NCBI GenBank assembly: GCA_000146045.2
Contig: BK006937.2
Location: 128,001 to 192,000, forward strand
DNA from: TPA_inf: Saccharomyces
Lineage: Eukaryota
Reading direction: 5' to 3'
DNA length: 64,000 bases
In this document: piece after piece, positions 5,724-42,885 of the stretch
Layout: each line of letters opens with the position of its first letter
Numbering within the stretch: position 1 is the stretch's first letter
Program-made: the position numbers and the translations under genes
Notes under the pieces: generated by a model
Databases searched by the model: none
Seen by the model: only the letters and a program-made list of their open reading frames with translations
What the model was told of the DNA's origin: nothing

Positions 5724-8700
5724 CTACTTTTGTTCCACAACTATCCACTTAAGGGCTAGATACCCCATTATTAAAAACACCACATTAAACAGAGCCAGGA
5801 TCTTGATGTCAAATACAAGGTTTTGGACAACAAATCCAAATGTGCTCAAGATAGTAGCGCCTGGAACTTCAATATTTAAGCCGTACTTTCTCTCTTTCAG
5901 CATCAATGTTTTGACCTCATTGATCAATAAAGATTCGTAGGCGTAGTAAAACACAGAGAAGTTTTTCAGGTACTTGAAGGCCACGTTTGTAATATTCTTA
6001 GTATTGATAAATAGTCCGCTAAACAGTAGTGAGCCCAAAAGCACCAGCACGCTTAATATTATGGAGTTATTCAAGTCTTCAAAAATTATGCCGATGGTTA
6101 GGATTTCCAACGATATCCCAAGGTTAAACAGTATAAGGATTCCAATACATTTAAAAAAAGCATTGTCTTTCATGTTTAAACCAGTCATTGGGTAAACAAT
6201 CAATGACAAGAGTATAGGTGGTACAACACGTAGCGGGACCACTTCGCTCATTATCTTACTAATGTAGTATGCAAGTGGCGAGTAATAGTTATTGGATCTT
6301 TCTTTTATGAAAATGATCCTTTCCAGAGCGAACGAGCTGAGACCTGTGAATGTAACAAAACCGAAGTACGTTAGTATAAAGAAGAACAGCCCCATTCTGT
6401 TCTGAAAACCGCTGATATCATTGGAGACGTTGTAATATAGTGTTCCCAAGAATAAACTCAATAGGATCGTCAGTAAATAATTACCCAATAATAGTTTAGG
6501 GTTTCTGTACATGTTTTTAAAACTTCTTGAATTCAATATCGATAACTGTTGCAGAAAACCAGCAGATTGTTGACCTGTGGGTAAATCTCCATTCAAAACG
6601 TTACTTTCCTCATCACCTTCGCTTAAAACTTCCTCGATCTCCTGTGAAAGCTCTGCATAATAGACGCTATCTTTATATTTATCGTGTAGTAGTTTGGTAT
6701 TTAAGTCAATCTCAGTAGCACCTCGCCTTCCATCTGTTCCCTCTACATCTTCTTCATCTCTGAGTAAAGATCTGATCTCATCTCTATGAGCTGCAAGATG
6801 AGCCCACTCTCTCTGTGTTGTACCATCACTGCTAGTAAATGTTGTTTGGTGTATCGTATTATCAATATCGTTAGTATCCGTACCAGCTTCTAAATCGGAA
6901 ATGTTTCTGATTCTTCTCCTTTTCCCCTGAGGACCGGCTTCAAAAGTAATATCAATCAAATAATCAGCAATATTATAGTTGTCCGGACAGATATATCCCT
7001 CATTTCTCAAAAATTCTGACACTTTTTTGGCATTTCCGGAATAGACCATCTCACCTTTACTTAACAGGACCAATTTATCGAATAAATAAAATATATTTGA
7101 TCTTGGCTGATGAATAGATAGCACCAATGTCCTGTTATAGTCGCTGGATAACCTTACCAAACATTCAATAACATTATTGGCATTACTAGCATCTAAACCA
7201 GATGTAGGTTCATCCAAAAATAAAACCAATGGAGATGTCACTAATTCACATGCAATGGAAACTCGGCGTTTTTCACCTCCACTAATACCACGATCAAATT
7301 CATTACCAATAATACGATCTTTGATATCAATAATTCTTAGTTCTTCCAACACCTTATAAACTCTTGCCTTCTTGGCCTCGAATGACAATGCTTTTGGCAA
7401 TCTTAACAGCGCACTATTTAATACGGTTTCAAAAACAGTCAAAGTGGGCAGCAAAAAGTCATCTTGATCGACGAACCCGATTATTTTCGAGAAAGATTTA
7501 CGGTCCATACTAATACCGTTAACTTTTATGGAACCCGAAACGTGACCTGTTTTCCGTTTCATTGCTAGGATATCTAATAAAGTAGTTTTACCCGCACCAG
7601 ATCCACCCATGATAGCTAATATTTGGCCGGGCTTCACGATACCACTTATTTCATTCAGCACAGTTTCTTCAACACCATCTGAATTTATCGAGGGGACACT
7701 ATAAGTGATATTTTCAAAACTTAATGTCGCCAGTGTGTCATCTTCATTTTGTAAGAAATTATTCACCGCATCTTCATCTGGCAAACGAATGGGAGACTTT
7801 GAGGAACCCAATCCATTTCTGAATAACGGAGATTTAGAAATGTAAAAGGTAGCAAATGTAAAAAGTGCCAGGACCATCACAGCAGTCAATGCCAACACCA
7901 ATTTCCCTTGCCATGACACTGTTGGATCTTTTGAAGGAGATTTGTAACCTGGAATCTCACTATAATGAACACATTCACCGGATTCACACTTCAAAGTAAT
8001 ATAAGGGTCACCAAACACGGTCAATATCAAATCATTCATAGAAGGCTCACTGAATTTACATTGCCTTGTTTCTAAATCACAGCTGAAATCTCCTGGCCCT
8101 TTTATTGTCTCTGTCAGGAAATCCGAGATATCTATAGACCCCTTAGCACCACACAACACAGTGTCGGGAACGCATTTGCATTGAACGTCATTACACTTAT
8201 AATGGGAGGTATTCTGTTCCAAGTCGTATTCAAAGGCACAATCACTTAAGCCACAATAGAAGCTTTCTAACTGATCTATCCAAAACTGAAAATTACATTC
8301 TTGATTAGGTTTATCACAGGCAAATGTAATTTGTGGTATTTTGCCGTTCAAAATCTGTAGAATTTTCTCATTGGTCACATTACAACCTGAAAATACTTTA
8401 TCTACAATCATACCATTCTTATAACATGTCCCCTTAATACTAGGATCAGGCATGAACGCATCACAGACAAAATCTTCTTGACAAACGTCACAATTGATCC
8501 CTCCCCATCCGTTATCACAATGACAGGTGTCATTTTGTGCTCTTATGGGACGATCCTTATTACCGCTTTCATCCGGTGATAGACCGCCACAGAGGGGCAG
8601 AGAGCAATCATCACCTGCAAACCCTTCTATACACTCACATCTACCAGTGTACGAATTGCATTCAGAAAACTGTTTGCATTCAAAAATAGGTAGCATACAA

Positions 8701-10996: not shown

Positions 10997-11184
10997 ATTG
11001 AATTGAATTGAAATCGATAGATCAATTTTTTTCTTTTCTCTTTCCCCATCCTTTACGCTAAAATAATAGTTTATTTTATTTTTTGAATATTTTTTATTTA
11101 TATACGTATATATAGACTATTATTTATCTTTTAATGATTATTAAGATTTTTATTAAAAAAAAATTCGCTCCTCTTTTAATGCCT

Positions 11185-12933
11185 TTATGCAGTTTTTTTT
11201 TCCCATTCGATATTTCTATGTTCGGGTTCAGCGTATTTTAAGTTTAATAACTCGAAAATTCTGCGTTCGTTAAAGCTTTCGAGAAGGATATTATTTCGAA
11301 ATAAACCGTGTTGTGTAAGCTTGAAGCCTTTTTGCGCTGCCAATATTCTTATCCATCTATTGTACTCTTTAGATCCAGTATAGTGTATTCTTCCTGCTCC
11401 AAGCTCATCCCACTTGCAACAAAAAAAGTCTAATCTTCTGCAATAATTTCCATCCTTGGCATTCAGAGACATATATTGGTCAATCGGTTTTAATTTTGTT
11501 TCTTCTTCTTCTTCTTCTTCAATTAACAATGTGCCTTCATCATTTTTCATTTCTTTCAGTTCTTCTAATTCTCTTGGAGACAATTTGACTCCCATGAAAA
11601 ATTTCTTGATTATCTCAGAAGAATACCACCTCTTTCTTTCTCCATACCCAACAATCTTCGCTGTACGAAATCTCTCCACTATTCTTTTTAAGAATAGCTT
11701 TTCCAAGTTTGGCGTTAGCTGTAAAAAACAATGGATATAGCCATCCTTGTACAACTTAATACAAAGCGTTTCCATGATTTTTGCCAACTCGGTCGTGTCA
11801 TTACAAAACGGCTTGAAAAATAAAAGATCAATGTCACCACACTTGGAATAGCCCCTATTATAACTTCCCTGTAATTCGACTTGGCATTCAGGATCAATGC
11901 CACGCAGCGCTTTTTGAACCTTCTTTAAATGTGTGAAACATTCATTCCGAGACATCTTGCATAACCAATCGTCGTAATATGACCAACCAAATAAAATTGT
12001 CCAATCTGATACAAACTCCTCTGGGTCCTTCTTAGCTGCAACACAAAAGCTTTCAAAATTTAGAAGATTCCAGCGTTTAGCAATTTCCGACCCAATGCCG
12101 TAACAATTTTTGAAGTATTTCAACTTGTCTTCTAATCCCACTGAATCATTTAAACCTGGTAAAACTCCCGTATCTAATATAACTTGTATTTTTTTGGCAA
12201 TACTAGGCCCGATATTCCTTAATTTAGTATGTGCTTCTTCACCGGAACGAACATTGAAATCGCAATTTTCCATCGACTGTTTAGCCAGTCTATAACTTCT
12301 TGCACGAAATTTCTCACCTTCGATCTCATATTTTTTTGTTAACCTTTTCAACGCTCCGATAATCAATTCATTGTTTTTGTACTTCGTTTTGTCAGTAACA
12401 AGGGAAGCTCTTCCTTTATCCCCCTGTAAGAGTCGCTTAAGAGGTTTTGAAGCTTGTATCATATCTTTATTGTTGCTGTCATCATTCCTTTCACTTTCTA
12501 CGTCAGTTGAAATCTCACTCTCTTTATCAGTAGAACTTTGTCCGTCATCAGCGTTATCTGATATAACGATAATGGATGGTTGAAATTTAATCAAATCATC
12601 TTTTTGAAACGCAAATTTATCATTCTGGACCCACTTTGTGATGCAACTGGTTTTCACACATTGAATGCCTGACTGTTCAATCTTACCAAGAAATTCATCG
12701 ACATCATTTAAGCCTGCTTCCCTTTGGAAAATATCTTTCTGAGTCAAATGCATATCAGAATCAACAAAGGAGTCCTCAATCAAAATGACCACTTCCTTAC
12801 GGCTAGATTGAAGACAATTTTGAATACTTGACACAATTGTGGCGCCCTTTTTCTCCAATATACTCTTAAAGAACTTATTGGAAGATGTGTTAGGATTAGG
12901 TAAAAAGGCGAAAAATTTACCCTTTAGAGACAT
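11185..12933 (-). CDS. POL4: DNA polymerase IV (Pol X family, Pol lambda-like), 582 aa
   Basis: ORF track 582 aa. The Pol X nucleotidyltransferase motif GSYNRGYSKCGDIDLL is present, and an N-terminal BRCT-like region is present. The sequence contains an EEEEEEE run encoded by (GAA)7. Confidence 0.9.
   Translation of the reverse strand: MSLKGKFFAFLPNPNTSSNKFFKSILEKKGATIVSSIQNCLQSSRKEVVILIEDSFVDSDMHLTQKDIFQREAGLNDVDEFLGKIEQSGIQCVKTSCITKWVQNDKFAFQKDDLIKFQPSIIVISDNADDGQSSTDKESEISTDVESERNDDSNNKDMIQASKPLKRLLQGDKGRASLVTDKTKYKNNELIIGALKRLTKKYEIEGEKFRARSYRLAKQSMENCDFNVRSGEEAHTKLRNIGPSIAKKIQVILDTGVLPGLNDSVGLEDKLKYFKNCYGIGSEIAKRWNLLNFESFCVAAKKDPEEFVSDWTILFGWSYYDDWLCKMSRNECFTHLKKVQKALRGIDPECQVELQGSYNRGYSKCGDIDLLFFKPFCNDTTELAKIMETLCIKLYKDGYIHCFLQLTPNLEKLFLKRIVERFRTAKIVGYGERKRWYSSEIIKKFFMGVKLSPRELEELKEMKNDEGTLLIEEEEEEETKLKPIDQYMSLNAKDGNYCRRLDFFCCKWDELGAGRIHYTGSKEYNRWIRILAAQKGFKLTQHGLFRNNILLESFNERRIFELLNLKYAEPEHRNIEWEKKTA
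11499..11520 (-). repeat. coding (GAA)7 trinucleotide repeat in POL4 (poly-Glu)
   Basis: The + strand reads ttcttcttcttcttcttcttc. The protein shows LLIEEEEEEETKLK. Confidence 0.9.
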
Positions 12934-14700: not shown

Positions 14701-14771
14701 TGCGCAAGCCCGGAATCGAACCGGGGGCCCAACGATGGCAACGTTGGATTTTACCACTAAACCACTTGCGC
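14701..14771 (-). tRNA. tG(GCC)C: tRNA-Gly (anticodon GCC)
   Basis: The reverse complement is GCGCAAGTGGTTTAGTGGTAAAATCCAACGTTGCCATCGTTGGGCCCCCGGTTCGATTCCGGGCTTGCGCA. The 7-nt anticodon loop TTGCCAT gives anticodon GCC, and the T-arm GGTTCGATTCC is intact. This is identical to yeast tRNA-Gly(GCC). Confidence 0.95.
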
Positions 14772-14807
14772 TAGTAATCTTGATACATGATTCGAGAAAA
14801 GCAACAA

Positions 14808-15080
14808 TATTATGTATACGGAATATACTAGGAGTTCTCTTCAAGGATAGAGGAATCCTCAAAATGGAATCCATATTTCTACATACTAATATTACGATTA
14901 TCCCTTCTTCTATTTTATATGTTTCATTATCCTATTACATTATCAATCCTTGCACTTCAGCTTCCTCTAACTTCGATGACAGCTTCTCATAACTTATGTC
15001 ATCATCTTAACACCGTATATGATAATATATTGATAATATAACTATTAGTTGATAGACGATAGTGGATTTCTATTCCAACA
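14808..15080 (-). mobile_element. solo Ty1/Ty2-type delta LTR, truncated at one end
   Basis: It ends ...ATTCCAACA, the reverse complement of the LTR terminus TGTTGGAAT. It is about 90 percent similar over its length to the deltas at 23522-23851 and 41217-41544. It lies about 35 bp upstream of tRNA-Gly. Confidence 0.85.
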
Positions 15081-21322: not shown

Positions 21323-21815
21323 ATTCTGTTGGAATAAGTGGCTATCAATATTTACATGTTGATATGGTAGTAAGGATATAAATGCTTATATTGAATATTT
21401 GGAATAAGCATCAACTATCACTTATTGAAAAGGACTCGAACAAAAAAATATGAAATGTCGAAAGCCACATCACTGAGAAGTTGTTGGATTGAAGCTCTAA
21501 AATGTCATCTTTTAGTAGTATTCGTGTTACTAGTATATTATCACATGCGGTGTAAAAAGATGACGTAAAGATTGAGAAACAGTCATCAACTGTTATGGAA
21601 GCTGAAATGCAAATATTGATAATGTAATAGGATAATGAAACGTATAAAATGAAAAAGAATAATAAAATATTATTATGTAGAAATACCGATTCCATTTTGA
21701 GAATTCCTATATCCTTGAGAAGAACTTCTAGTATATTCTGTATACATAATATTACTGCCTTTATCAACAATGGAATGCCAAAAATTATCAAAATATCACC
21801 CAATATTCAATTTTA
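21323..21815 (+). mobile_element. composite solo-LTR remnant (delta family) with duplicated 5' ends and an internal insertion of about 85 bp
   Basis: Two LTR 5' termini (TGTTGGAATAAGTGGCTATC and TTTGGAATAAGCATCAACTATCAC) are followed by delta-like sequence: ...gtagaaataccgattccattttgagaattcctatatccttgagaagaacttctagtatattctgtatac.... It ends about 105 bp upstream of tM(CAU)C. Confidence 0.7.
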
Positions 21816-21919
21816 TTGTTGTGAAGACATCAAGCCCTAGATATATATCATAGTAGGATAAAATAGTAGAATAAAACTATTCATATATCTACGTGAAAGC
21901 ATCAGAGATTGTAATGTTG

Positions 21920-21991
21920 AGCGCCGTGGCGCAGTGGAAGCGCGCAGGGCTCATAACCCTGATGTCCTCGGATCGAAACCGAGCGGCGCTA
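21920..21991 (+). tRNA. tM(CAU)C: initiator tRNA-Met (anticodon CAU)
   Basis: AGCGCCGTGGCGCAGTGGAAGCGCGCAGGGCTCATAACCCTGATGTCCTCGGATCGAAACCGAGCGGCGCTA. This equals yeast tRNAi-Met, including the initiator-specific A1:U72 pair and GATCGAAAC T-loop. Confidence 0.95.
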
Positions 21992-22289
21992 TTAAATTTT
22001 TTGAACTGTCCATTAATAATAATGGAACTGACGTCGTCAATTACCGGTAGCTTTTTTGCCCACATTTTTAATCATCTTTTAAGTATTTGAGTATTTGTTG
22101 TTCACTAGAGTTTTACTAATTAAGGTTCTGAGAAAATAAAGATATGCATTTAGAAAAGTCGGTTCTACACCGCAAATTTCTTTATTACAGAAACATTTTA
22201 TACAAAGAGGATACATAGTTATTGGAAAGAAAATCAATTATCTTTTTGTTGGGTAGTATGAATATTACTTGTACATTATCATATACAAT

Positions 22290-22560
22290 ATAAAAAGATG
22301 TCATAGAGTTGTGAAATATTTATTATATTTAATAAAAGCTGAAGCGCAATGATTGAAAACGTTTTAGGATGATTAATGATAAAGTACAAAATGAGGAGAA
22401 GAAATAATAATAACATAAAGTGGAAATACCGGTTATCTTTTAAGGATATTATAACCTGGAGGAAAACTTCCTGGGTTCTCTGTATATTCAACACTTTTCC
22501 GTTATCAAAAATAGAATCCCAACAGTATCCCCATTTTCGTCAATATCTCCATAACGACAA
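22290..22560 (+). mobile_element. diverged delta/tau-like solo LTR fragment
   Basis: It is colinear with delta but only about 70 percent similar: ttatcatatacaatataaaaagatgtcatag...aaagctgaagcgcaatgattgaaaacg...ggaaataccggttatcttttaaggatattataacctggaggaaaacttcc.... The family assignment is uncertain. Confidence 0.4.
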
Positions 22561-23283
22561 GGTCTTCTAGATACCATATAATGACAATAACCAAGCCCAC
22601 CATTTAGGTGGATTTTTTGTGTGGTTTTGAAATTAAAACATTTTTAGAGGAAAATTGTGATCACAGAATTTCACATTCCCAGTTACTTTAATAATATTCA
22701 TAGTTAGAGATGAAGAGGTACTATTAATATGAAGGTTAAGTATGAATCTTCTCATGCTTCTATAAGCGAGGGATATAAAACATCGCCAACTGTTTCATCT
22801 TATTTATTATCAATATTATGTGTGTTTGGAGCTTACTATACAGTTAATGTGATAATTAATATAACTCTTGTATAACTACCATATCAATGTTCAATTAATA
22901 GATCTTAAATCGGTTTCATTACTACCTGAACTGCATGTATGAAATTTCCTTCCACATTAGGCACATTCACATGTAATACGAGATGTACATCTATATGTGA
23001 TATTAGCATTTACACAGCAATCCTATATCACTATTAATGGCCACTTGTTCCAAAAAGTATATATTATGAAGCGTATTATTATTTTATACTCAGATAGCTG
23101 GTGCGATACGTTCGCAGATTTTGAGCGCAATGCAATGAGTATGACGGAAAGGTTCACTCATAATTTCAATAACTCAAGTTGTTTGAATTTAAAATACATT
23201 CCCCGTTAGATAAGCTATAAACATTGTTACTTGCGCTTGCGGCACATGTAATGTAGTTTCTTTCTTTTTCCAAGAAAAAAGAA

Positions 23284-23356
23284 AGCCCTGTAGGGGGCTC
23301 GAACCCCTAACCTTATGATTAAGAGTCATACGCGCTACCGATTGCGCCAACAAGGC
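23284..23356 (-). tRNA. tK(CUU)C: tRNA-Lys (anticodon CUU)
   Basis: The reverse complement is GCCTTGTTGGCGCAATCGGTAGCGCGTATGACTCTTAATCATAAGGTTAGGGGTTCGAGCCCCCTACAGGGCT. The anticodon loop CTCTTAA gives CTT. This equals yeast tRNA-Lys(CUU). Confidence 0.95.
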
Positions 23357-23460
23357 TCTTTAATTATGAAAAATTACGTTTAATAAGTGACTTAAAAATA
23401 TAAATACTGTTACTAAAATGTGAACTAAAACCTCAATATTATTTTCTGATCACTTGATGA

Positions 23461-23851
23461 ATAGCTGGTAATTGTTGGATTCCATTGTTGGTAAAGGCTA
23501 TAATTTTACGTATATAGAATTGTTGGAATAAAAATCCACTATCGTCTATCAACTATAGTTATATTATCAATATATTATCATATACGGTGTTAAGATGATG
23601 ACATAAGTTATGAGAAGCTGTCATCGAAGTTAGAGGAAGCTGAAGTGCAAGGATTGATAATGTAATAGGATAATGAAACATATAAAACGGAATGAGGAAT
23701 AATCGTAATATTAGTATGTAGAAATATAGATTCCATTTTGAGGATTCCTATATCCTCGAGGAGAACTTCTAGTATATTCTGTATACATAATATTACTGCC
23801 TTTATCAATAATGGAATCCCAACAACTATCTGAAAATTCACGTGATTCTCA
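23461..23851 (+). mobile_element. short inverted delta end-fragment (23461-23521) abutting a complete solo Ty1/Ty2-type delta LTR (23522-23851)
   Basis: The full LTR runs TGTTGGAATAAAAATCCACTATCG ... GTGATTCTCA, about 330 bp with TG...CA termini. The 60-bp fragment aattgttggattccattgttggtaaaggctataat matches the opposite delta terminus in inverted orientation. The array lies 105-170 bp upstream of tK(CUU)C. Confidence 0.88.
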
Positions 23852-40300: not shown

Positions 40301-40372
40301 AGGTCCTACCCGGATTCGAACCGGGGTTGTCCGGATCAAAACCGAAAGTGATAACCACTACACTATAGGACC
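40301..40372 (-). tRNA. tQ(UUG)C: tRNA-Gln (anticodon UUG)
   Basis: The reverse complement is GGTCCTATAGTGTAGTGGTTATCACTTTCGGTTTTGATCCGGACAACCCCGGTTCGAATCCGGGTAGGACCT. The anticodon loop TTTTGAT gives TTG. This equals yeast tRNA-Gln(UUG). Confidence 0.95.
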
Positions 40373-40387
40373 AGGACTTCTTGTAAT

Positions 40388-41068
40388 ATTTTGTATCTCA
40401 AAATGAGGTATGTCAGTATGACAATACGTCATCCTAAACGTTCATAAAACACATATGAAACAACCTTATAACAAAACGAACAACATGAGATAAAACCCGG
40501 CCTTCCCTAGCTGAACTACCCAAAAGTATAAATGCCTGAACAATTAGTTTAGATCCGAGATTCCGCGCTTCCACCACTTAGTATGATTCATATTTTATAT
40601 GAGAAATGGGTGAATGTTGAGATAATTGTTGGGATTCCATTGTTGATAAAGGCTATAATATTAGGTATACAGAATATACTAGAAGTTCTCCTCGAGGATT
40701 TAGGAATCCATAAAAGGGAATCTGCAATTCTACACAATTCTATAAATATTATTATCATCGTTTTATATGTTAATATTCATTGATCCTATTACATTATCAA
40801 TCCTTGCGTTTCAGCTTCCACTAATTTAGATGACTATTTCTCATCATTTGCGTCATCTTCTAACACCGTATATGATAATATACTAGTAACGTAAATACTA
40901 GTTAGTAGATGATAGTTGATTTTTATTCCAACATTATATAATATATAAGATAAGTAACATTCCGTGAATTAATCTGATAAACTGTTTTGACAACTGGTTA
41001 CTTCCCTAAGACTGTTTATATTAGGATTGTCAAGACACTCCGGTATTACTCGAGCCCGTAATACAACA
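40388..41068 (+). mobile_element. sigma element (Ty3 solo LTR) split into 40388-40599 and 40934-41068 by a delta insertion
   Basis: It starts TTTTGTATCTCAAAATGAGGTATGTCAGTATGACAATACGTCA and ends CTCGAGCCCGTAATACAACA. The two parts sum to about 341 bp, the sigma length. It begins 15 bp upstream of the 5' end of tRNA-Gln, the hallmark Ty3 position. Confidence 0.9.
40600..40933 (-). mobile_element. solo Ty1-type delta LTR inserted into the sigma element
   Basis: It runs TGAGAAATGGGTGAATGTTGAGATAATTGTTGGGATTCC ... GATTTTTATTCCAACA, 334 bp, reading as the complement of TGTTGGAATA...TCTCA. It is flanked by a TTATAT/TATAT duplication of sigma sequence, consistent with a Ty1 5-bp target-site duplication. 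Confidence 0.92.
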
Positions 41069-41216
41069 TAATATCTACATTCTAGATACCGACATATCAA
41101 TATAAAAATACTGAATATTGAGACATCTTTTAGATTACGTTTTGGTTGCCGCAAACCAAAAATGCAATTTAAATGGGTGAATAATTTGAATGGTTAGAAA
41201 TCTATTTGTTGGAATA

Positions 41217-41544
41217 AAAATCCACTATCGTCTATCAACTAATAGTTATATTATCAATATATTATCATATACGGTGTTAAGATGATGACATAAGTTATGA
41301 GAAGCTGTCATCGATGTTAGAGGAAGCTGAAACGCAAGGATTGATAATGTAATAGGATCAATGAATATAAACATATAAAACGGAATGAGGAATAATCGTA
41401 ATATTAGTATGTAGAAATATAGATTCCATTTTGAGGATTCCTATATCCTCGAGGAGAACTTCTAGTATATTCTGTATACCTAATATTATAGCCTTTATCA
41501 ACAATGGAATCCCAACAATTATCTAATTACCCACACATTTCTCA
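41217..41544 (+). mobile_element. solo Ty1/Ty2-type delta LTR
   Basis: It runs TGTTGGAATAAAAATCCACTATCGTCTATCAACTAATAG ... CCACACATTTCTCA, about 328 bp. It is above 90 percent similar to the delta at 23522-23851. A short delta end-fragment (AAATGGGTGAATAATTTGAATGG) precedes it. Confidence 0.9.
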
Positions 41545-41572
41545 CTATTCTCGGTAAAGGTTATAATATTAG

Positions 41573-41888
41573 TGTTGGAATAAAACTCTAAAATACCATC
41601 CATTCAGAAGTATTCATGCTACTAGCATTTTATCACATGAGGTGTAAGAAGATGACATAAAGATTGAGATACAGTCATCAAACCTAATGGAAGCGAAATG
41701 CAGGGATTGATAATGTAATAAGATAATGAAACATAAGAAACAGAAGGTAGGAGTATTATTATGTAGAAATACCGATTCCATTTTAAGGATTCCTATGTCC
41801 TCGAGTAGAACGTCTAGTATATACGAAATATTATACCCTTTAAAAAACAGTGGACCCAACGATAATCACAACATTCACCGATTTCTCA
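41573..41888 (+). mobile_element. diverged delta-family solo LTR
   Basis: It runs TGTTGGAATAAAACTCTAAAATACC ... CACCGATTTCTCA with TG..CA termini. Its internal sequence is colinear with delta at about 75-80 percent identity. It is separated from the previous delta by a 28-bp inverted delta fragment. Confidence 0.8.
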
Positions 41889-42885
41889 CCTGAACAGATC
41901 ACGATCATCCTTCAGAACATCTTGCTGTAGCCATATTAAATTCCTTTGTCTCTGGACTCTTTCTCGCGCGACTGATCTCCCAATGAAGAACTGCGTCAGG
42001 TCATCTCGTCCTCAATTTCTAACCAAAATTGGATGATTTTAGTTCTCACTGACGCTGCTTGAACGTTAACACCGAAAGAGCATGCAATAATCACAGCACG
42101 GTAAACCAACTTGTGTCATATTTAAGAGAAATATTAAAACGCTAAGAAGATAGCTCCCATAATAGAAGTACAAGTTATATTTATCGTTGTCCAACTGCAG
42201 AAGTTAAATAAAGGTAAATAAATCGAGCTAAGAGAAAAAAAAAGTATAGGCAAAATTCCGACCGGAGCTAGCTTTATCTTGCTCCTCCACCTAAGTCACC
42301 TGCTCAGGTCACTCAAGTTCACAATCTTCTGAGAGGATAGATAAAGGAAAAATTGGAACAGATCTTTTCATGGCCTGGCAATTGTCTGTGGATTGGTAAA
42401 GCTCTGTCAGTGAAAAAAAAAGTTCTCGCTCCTTCTTGGTCTCTTCTATTGCCTGAGATTCTAATGCTTTCCTTACATTGTTTCATAAAATAACCAATTT
42501 TTCGTGTCACAATAATCTTGAAATTTGAAGTTTCTAAAATGCATCAGACATGGTGTCGTAATTAGTTGACTTACTTTAACTTCTACCAAGAAGTAGAAAA
42601 TAGCAGAGTGCGTGAACGCATAGCAGAGAACAAAATACTTACTAAACCTTTTCGAATAAGTTAGCAAGAAGCTTTTAAAAACATAGACTTAGAAATTGTC
42701 CTGCACTTGGCAAGGAAGAAAAGAAAGATTAGTTAAACAGAAATCGAAAAATGCATGATGAAAAACTAAGTAGACCTCTTTAGAAGTGTCTTAGCGGCTA
42801 TTGTTCATGATACTTTTGAAAAGAGCCCTGAGATTTTCCATTACCATCAACAGGACCAATGAATAGCTAAAAGAATCGAATGTAT

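Follow-up and report, generated by a model that had tools for sequence, protein, structure and literature searches.

The locus described here lies in a window of 64,000 nt, corresponding to positions 128,001 to 192,000 of the Saccharomyces cerevisiae chromosome III reference (offset 128,000), and all coordinates below are positions in this window. It comprises the minus-strand tRNA-Gln(UUG) gene, whose upstream side points toward higher coordinates, together with a sigma element, which the literature identifies as the long terminal repeat (LTR) of the retrotransposon Ty3, and a series of delta elements, which are LTRs of the Ty1/Ty2 type. The open reading frames flanking the locus encode a Ras-family GTPase (209 aa) on one side and the MFS transporter FEN2 on the other. 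Element boundaries, duplicated target sites and orthologous alleles confirmed the accumulation of LTRs upstream of the tRNA gene, where at least five retrotransposon insertions have occurred (Table 1); the tRNA gene itself is 98.6-100% identical across all 20 orthologous loci.

Table 1. Features of the tRNA-Gln(UUG) locus in window coordinates (TSD, target-site duplication; a point in the strand column, no strand)
Feature	Position	Strand	Basis or remark
tRNA-Gln(UUG) gene	40301..40372	-	ARAGORN; Rfam RF00005, 62 bits
Interval between tRNA and sigma	40373..40388	.	16 bp
Left TSD copy of sigma, TAATA	40384..40388	.	-12 to -16 from the mature tRNA 5' end; single TAATA in sigma-less alleles
Sigma (Ty3-type LTR), positions 1-211	40389..40599	+	colinear with intact 341-bp orthologous and paralogous sigmas
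Delta 1, complete 334-bp solo Ty1/Ty2-type LTR (TG...CA) within sigma	40600..40933	-	repeat analysis, BLAST, orthologues
Sigma, positions 207-341	40934..41068	+	first 5 bp are the right TTATA copy of the delta 1 TSD
Unique upstream DNA	41069..41170	.	opens with the right TAATA copy of the sigma TSD (41069-41073)
Delta-X left half, old truncated inverted delta	41171..41206	-	last 5 bp are the left CTATT of the delta 2 TSD
Delta 2, complete 338-bp solo Ty1/Ty2-type LTR within delta-X	41207..41544	+	repeat analysis, BLAST, orthologues
Delta-X right half, 28 bp	41545..41572	-	first 5 bp are the right CTATT of the delta 2 TSD
Delta 3, old diverged 316-bp delta (YCRWdelta11)	41573..41888	+	BLAST; 75% identity to delta 1
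Inverted repeat delta 1/delta 2	40600..41544	.	arms 85.5% identical, 273-bp spacer, 5' ends facing

Once joined across delta 1, the sigma pieces (40389-40599 and 40939-41068) form an element of 341 bp that starts 16 bp upstream of the mature 5' end of tRNA-Gln and is flanked by a perfect 5-bp target-site duplication (TSD), TAATA, at 40384-40388 and 41069-41073. An earlier note on this DNA, made from the sequence alone, had already recognised a sigma at the position expected of Ty3, though with a gap of 15 bp and a start at 40388; the position stands, with the gap corrected to 16 bp and the start to 40389. The 3' terminus of the element is ATACAACA and its 5' terminus TTTTGTAT rather than TGTTGTAT, such that the 8-bp terminal inverted repeat TGTTGTAT...ATACAACA is present save for one substitution at position 2. 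This G-to-T change (window 40389-40390) removes the canonical terminal TG, and since the TTTTGTAT start is common to all orthologous alleles seen (L005, L011, L013, L016, L017, L023 and L028), the change is either old or dates from the integration itself.

A family scan with the joined sigma sequence spanning the delta 1 site retrieved 32 loci from three yeast-containing assemblies, with 30 of the matches being full-length and two of the loci (L023 and L028) representing the same tRNA-Gln locus with sigma intact. The full-length copies were 97-99% identical, and 29 of the 30 had clean boundaries, all of these measuring exactly 341 bp. Most copies started with TGTTGTAT (24/30) and finished with ATACAACA (28/30), a perfect 5-bp TSD was found in 21 of the 30, and the mature 5' end of a tRNA lay 12-16 bp away in 19. 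The window sigma fits this family on every count except for the G-to-T change at position 2. None of the 32 fetched sigma loci had a full-length Ty3 beside it, and the neighbours of sigma copies that lacked their own TSD were ordinary genes; nor did a BLAST search of the 64-kb window reveal a second sigma elsewhere within it.

That the two sigma pieces are fragments left by separate Ty3 events is exceedingly improbable. No support for such an origin was found, the joined length is exactly the 341 bp of the 29 complete paralogues with clean boundaries, and the joined halves align without gaps, at 334-340 of 341 identical positions, to unbroken sigmas located at the same tRNA-Gln and flanked by the same TAATA. 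A single mismatch each was counted against L011, L013, L016 and L017, and seven against L005. The single split sigma proposed earlier is thus upheld, its halves being colinear with unbroken 341-bp orthologues at one to seven mismatches.

The element that interrupts sigma, delta 1, had been described as a complete inverted delta of 334 bp at 40600-40933, and these boundaries proved to be exact. It splits sigma at position 211 and is flanked by TTATA at 40595-40599 and 40934-40938; the duplication previously read as TTATAT/TATAT is essentially this 5-bp motif, of which intact sigma alleles hold one copy at the delta 1 insertion point. Delta 2 opens with TGTTGGAATA and has a TSD of its own, CTATT, at 41202-41206 and 41545-41549. 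It corresponds to a delta previously placed at 41217-41544, 150 bp beyond sigma, of which the identity and the end were correct; the start lies 10 bp further left, at 41207, and the distance from the end of sigma is 138 bp (41069-41206). Delta 3 was accurately delimited from the outset. All three elements (334, 338 and 316 bp, respectively) have the termini TGTTGG...TCTCA and are 73-95% identical among themselves and to five further copies in the window, where deltas matched one another at BLAST E-values of 1e-41 to 1e-108, well above what chance would yield. No TSD was found around delta 3 (ATTAG versus CCTGA), and its junctions therefore reflect later deletion or recombination, not clean integration.

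When delta 2 and one copy of CTATT were deleted from the sequence, 41171-41206 joined 41550-41572 as a colinear match of ~62 bp to the 3'-terminal part of an inverted delta. This reconstruction scored 46, versus 19.8 +/- 2.5 for shuffled sequences, and the pieces alone scored 24 and 32. The 28-bp inverted scrap at 41545-41572 that the earlier note had listed is therefore real, but is only the right half of a longer element, namely a fifth and older inverted delta (delta-X) that was split by delta 2. No remnant of delta-X was found to the right of delta 3 by BLAST at a word size of 7. Recognition of delta-X as an element in its own right raises the minimum number of independent events from the four in 1.5 kb that had been proposed, correctly as to their multiplicity, to five.

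The orthologous locus was taken from 19 distinct NCBI assemblies via both flanking genes and mapped element by element, and the presence/absence polymorphism anticipated among strains was found to be abundant. Eleven of the 19 assemblies lacked sigma and also delta 1 and delta 2, reading AGGACTTCTTG-TAATA-TCTAC with one TAATA, and every assembly with an intact right side read GAAAT-CTATT-CTCGG with one CTATT. These sigma-less and delta 2-less alleles are true empty sites. A further five assemblies carried an unbroken 341-bp sigma flanked by TAATA, and another two (L006 and L018) carried sigma with apparent assembly errors. Delta 2 was absent from all 19, each with an exact empty site, and neither a solo delta 1 or delta 2 nor the full pair of Ty1 elements known from fragile site FS2 (see below) was found in any of them. 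Conversely, each of the 18 assemblies with an intact right side had delta-X, unsplit, and delta 3, the latter at 96.9-100% identity. The unique DNA at 41069-41170 occurred in every allele at 95.7-100% identity, and no LTR homology was found in it by BLAST at a word size of 7.

Across flanks of ~7 kb, sigma-bearing haplotypes differed from the window at 1-17 sites, versus 27-49 sites for sigma-less haplotypes. This fits with sigma having arisen on the haplotype lineage of the window, with both deltas being later additions.

Several of the retrieved alleles showed peculiarities of their own. In L018, 247 bp of G/T homopolymer junk lie within sigma (8009-8255, window orientation); this insertion was considered as a possible transposon and rejected as an assembly artefact. 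In the L006 allele (11004-11345), single bases are deleted at scattered points and the 3' end of sigma is garbled, which resembles long-read noise, and L009 (GCA_000976815.3; ~12028-12031) is without ~170 bp between delta 3 and FEN2 (window ~42430-42600). The L020 allele (GCA_001634645.1; 8458-8789) carries an extra inverted delta of 332 bp inside delta 3 (~41674-41678) with the TSD GTCAT, and this delta, which shares 93-95% identity with delta 2 and with the window deltas at 23521-23841 and 14794-15080, is an independent sixth integration event at the locus.

Existing LTRs could alternatively have produced a cluster of this kind, chiefly by ectopic recombination or segmental rearrangement with one another and not by independent integrations at the site. 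The lack of a TSD at delta 3, which abuts the truncated delta-X, does indicate that at least one junction stems from deletion or recombination, and the L004 locus (discussed below) has recombined with another sigma-bearing locus. Against this, sigma, delta 1 and delta 2 each have a perfect 5-bp TSD and a single-copy empty site in other alleles, L020 adds another clean insertion, and recombination cannot make TSDs that match an empty site. As a principal explanation for the cluster it is very unlikely; owing to the empty sites, assembly by recombination only is excluded for sigma, delta 1 and delta 2, and recombination is needed only for the delta-X/delta 3 junction.

The positions of the insertions relative to tRNA-Gln conform to the known targeting of both retrotransposon types. 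Ty3 is directed via TFIIIB to 1-4 bp upstream of the start site of RNA polymerase III (Pol III) (PMC5911963), which accounts for the sigma TSD at -12 to -16, and the gap of 16 bp lies within the ~16-19 bp from the mature tRNA 5' end that marks position-specific integration. With other sigmas at Pol III start sites (Sandmeyer et al. 1988; Chalker & Sandmeyer 1992, cited in PMC5911963) the window copy shares the 341-bp length, the ATACAACA 3' end, the 5-bp TSD and the 16-bp tRNA gap; it differs in being a solo LTR that is interrupted, and in starting with TTTTGTAT, where 24 of the 30 paralogues start with TGTTGTAT. The integrase of Ty1 is steered by Pol III subunits into nucleosomal DNA within ~1 kb upstream (PMC5911963), which explains why, in ancestral coordinates, the delta insertion points all lie ~115-280 bp upstream of tRNA-Gln and none lies downstream. 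The locus thereby resembles other clusters of solo deltas upstream of tRNA genes, including LAHS and RAHS (Warmington et al. 1986, 1987), in its TG...CA LTRs of 316-338 bp, 5-bp TSDs, nesting, strain polymorphism and insertion points that all fall, in ancestral coordinates, no more than ~300 bp upstream of the tRNA. What sets the tRNA-Gln locus apart is its inverted pair, delta 1 and delta 2, with their close spacing.

Comparison with the literature identified the locus as FRAHS, the far right arm hotspot already published for chromosome III of S. cerevisiae, which is also fragile site FS2. At an offset of 128,000, delta 3 equals YCRWdelta11 (SGD 169,573-169,888; PMC5741057) exactly and has the same length of 316 bp that is listed in the supplement of PMC2996329, which therefore fixes the position of the window on the chromosome. 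FRAHS spans SGD 167,399-170,909 (Hoang et al. 2010, PMC2996329) and is distinct from the classical RAHS at 146,628-152,734 (PMC2996329). The earlier note had spoken of a transposition hot spot on the right arm, which is apt provided that FRAHS and not the classical RAHS is understood; it had overlooked the best-known property of the locus, in that delta 1 and delta 2 constitute the FS2 inverted repeat. The sigma and the junction sequences are not described in the Hoang et al. supplements (PMC2996329). The SGD names YCRCdelta7, YCRWdelta8 and YCRWdelta10 were considered for these LTRs and discarded as wrong, given that, according to the literature, YCRCdelta7 lies at ~143 kb and delta8, 9 and 10 belong to RAHS; only delta 3 can be named.

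In S288C derived from BY4716, FRAHS contains two full-length Ty1 elements (YCRCTy1-4 and YCRWTy1-5) in a clone of 14,683 bp (GenBank GU220390; PMC2996329), and FS2 is described as two head-to-head inverted Ty1s beside FEN2 with a spacer of 283 bp or ~280 bp (PMC3291544; PMC3778018). The window has the same coordinates, YCRWdelta11, the same GTPase-FEN2 interval and a head-to-head inverted pair of similar spacing, in which the 5' ends of delta 1 (-) and delta 2 (+) point inward and are 273 bp apart; it differs from standard S288C in having solo LTRs in place of two Ty1s of ~5.9 kb. Exchanging the solo LTRs for the published Ty1s gives 3,511 - 334 - 338 + 5,918 + 5,926 = 14,683 bp, which is the published clone size. 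We infer that the delta 1 site is that of the Crick-strand, and the delta 2 site that of the Watson-strand, full-length Ty1 of S288C FS2, and that the window shows FS2 in a 'delta-only' form. Such a form, an inverted delta pair with the same spacing, occurs in YJM789 (PMC3778018). The predicted fold of single-stranded 40600-41544 had an energy of -267.4 kcal/mol, versus -75.9 +/- 5.7 for shuffled sequences (z = -33.9), and this predicted self-pairing is consistent with the hairpin/breakage model proposed for FS2, the fragile-site behaviour of which has been demonstrated experimentally, including in the delta-only form (PMC3778018).

Further evidence for a full-length element at the delta 1 site was provided by L004 (GCA_030035895.1; 11230-17395). 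This allele keeps the left junction of the window (...TTATA|TGAGAAATGG), followed by an element of 5,962 bp that encodes TYA (PF01021, E = 3e-212) and has LTRs 94% and 97% identical to delta 1, and the delta 1 site therefore holds a full-length Ty elsewhere. The pol frame of this element is broken in the assembly, possibly due to long-read errors, and the identity between its two LTRs is only 93%. On its right side the Ty joins a different, inverted sigma that is broken at ~position 206, 5 bp from the site in the window sigma, with unrelated DNA beyond and a PPR gene instead of FEN2. The allele appears to have arisen by Ty-Ty recombination between two loci with sigma, each of which had a Ty at nearly the same sigma position.

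The solo state of delta 1 and delta 2 may itself be questioned, as LTR-LTR recombination during cloning or propagation, or an oddity of a non-standard strain, could have produced it from a real chromosome with two full-length Ty1s. The chromosome III reference is a composite of four non-standard strain backgrounds and was 'almost entirely' replaced at RAHS and FRAHS upon resequencing (PMC2996329), the 19 other assemblies contain neither solo element, and the size arithmetic puts full-length S288C elements at exactly these two places. However, the inverted delta pair of YJM789 is a natural one (PMC3778018), and reduction to a solo LTR by LTR-LTR recombination is the commonest fate of Ty elements, with S288C having 279 solo Ty1 LTRs versus 32 elements (PMC5911963). 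We consider an artefact to be unlikely, and it would alter only the last step in the history of the locus, since the integrations and their TSDs are real either way.

The locus was thus very probably formed by repeated integration of retrotransposon cDNA into a few hundred bases of DNA upstream of tRNA-Gln(UUG), an active Pol III gene, and is now FRAHS/FS2 in solo-LTR form. Its history can be proposed from boundaries, TSDs, empty sites, nesting and polymorphism that are directly observed. An old inverted element of the Ty1/Ty2 type would first have left the remnant delta-X, and a second old element would then have left delta 3, with deletion or recombination erasing the rest of delta-X and any TSD of delta 3; both remnants are seen in all strains sampled with an intact right side. 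Ty3 would subsequently have integrated at the Pol III initiation site (TSD TAATA) and collapsed to a solo sigma, an allele that is polymorphic and linked to the haplotype of the window. On this sigma haplotype, one Ty1 would have inserted into sigma positions 207-211 (TTATA) and another, in the opposite orientation, into delta-X (CTATT). Both would have been reduced to solo LTRs in the sequenced reference clone, presumably by LTR-LTR recombination, and would have remained as full-length Ty1s in standard S288C.

Some points weigh against this account. No full-length Ty3 was recovered, and the equation of sigma with the Ty3 LTR draws on the literature; likewise, from these data alone the delta LTRs cannot be assigned to Ty1 as opposed to Ty2. 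The only evidence for the exact placing of both Ty1s is the size arithmetic, the match in orientation and spacing, and the left junction of L004. The spacer measured 273 bp, versus the 283 bp or ~280 bp published. Finally, no other assembly (0/19) carries solo delta 1 or any delta 2.

The second sigma of L004, which has the opposite orientation and is broken at ~position 206, suggests that Ty1 inserted independently into two sigma copies at almost the same spot. It is conceivable, though we regard it as doubtful, that sigma creates a recurrent Ty1 target, defined by sequence or by nucleosomes, ~220-227 bp upstream of tRNA genes. Were this to apply generally, a Ty3 LTR fixed at -17 would set the phase of the nucleosome upstream and determine in advance where Ty1 lands, and nested sigma/delta structures, along with Ty-Ty rearrangements between sigma-bearing tRNA loci, would be favoured.

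FRAHS/FS2 is already known and thoroughly characterised, and the base-level history given here is a clarification and not a discovery. What has been clarified are the five nested events, their TSDs, and the division of the elements into those shared by all sampled strains and those that are polymorphic. The locus constitutes a textbook case of Pol III-directed targeting, in which Ty3 goes to the start site and Ty1 to nucleosomes upstream of it, and is one at which the reference is unrepresentative, as strains of the S288C background hold ~11 kb more DNA in the form of two inverted Ty1s at delta 1 and delta 2. FS2 is a heavily used experimental locus, and its inverted Ty1 pair drives translocations, break-induced replication and loss of heterozygosity.

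Two other LTR-containing regions were noted in the window. A second LTR cluster at 21482-23841 includes deltas at 21482-21802, 22222-22524, 23469-23520 and 23521-23841, amongst which sit tRNA-Met (21920-21991) and tRNA-Lys (23283-23357). The classical RAHS maps to 18.6-24.7 kb of the window, 17-22 kb to the left of FRAHS, where these two tRNA genes and several deltas lie, and by coordinates the second cluster is the classical RAHS, which is also fragile site FS1. According to the literature the reference is also wrong at RAHS, where S288C has two tandem full-length Ty1s. In addition, a truncated delta (14794-15080, minus strand) lies ~20 bp upstream of tRNA-Gly(GCC) (14701-14771) and, by the coordinates of PMC2996329, is YCRCdelta7.

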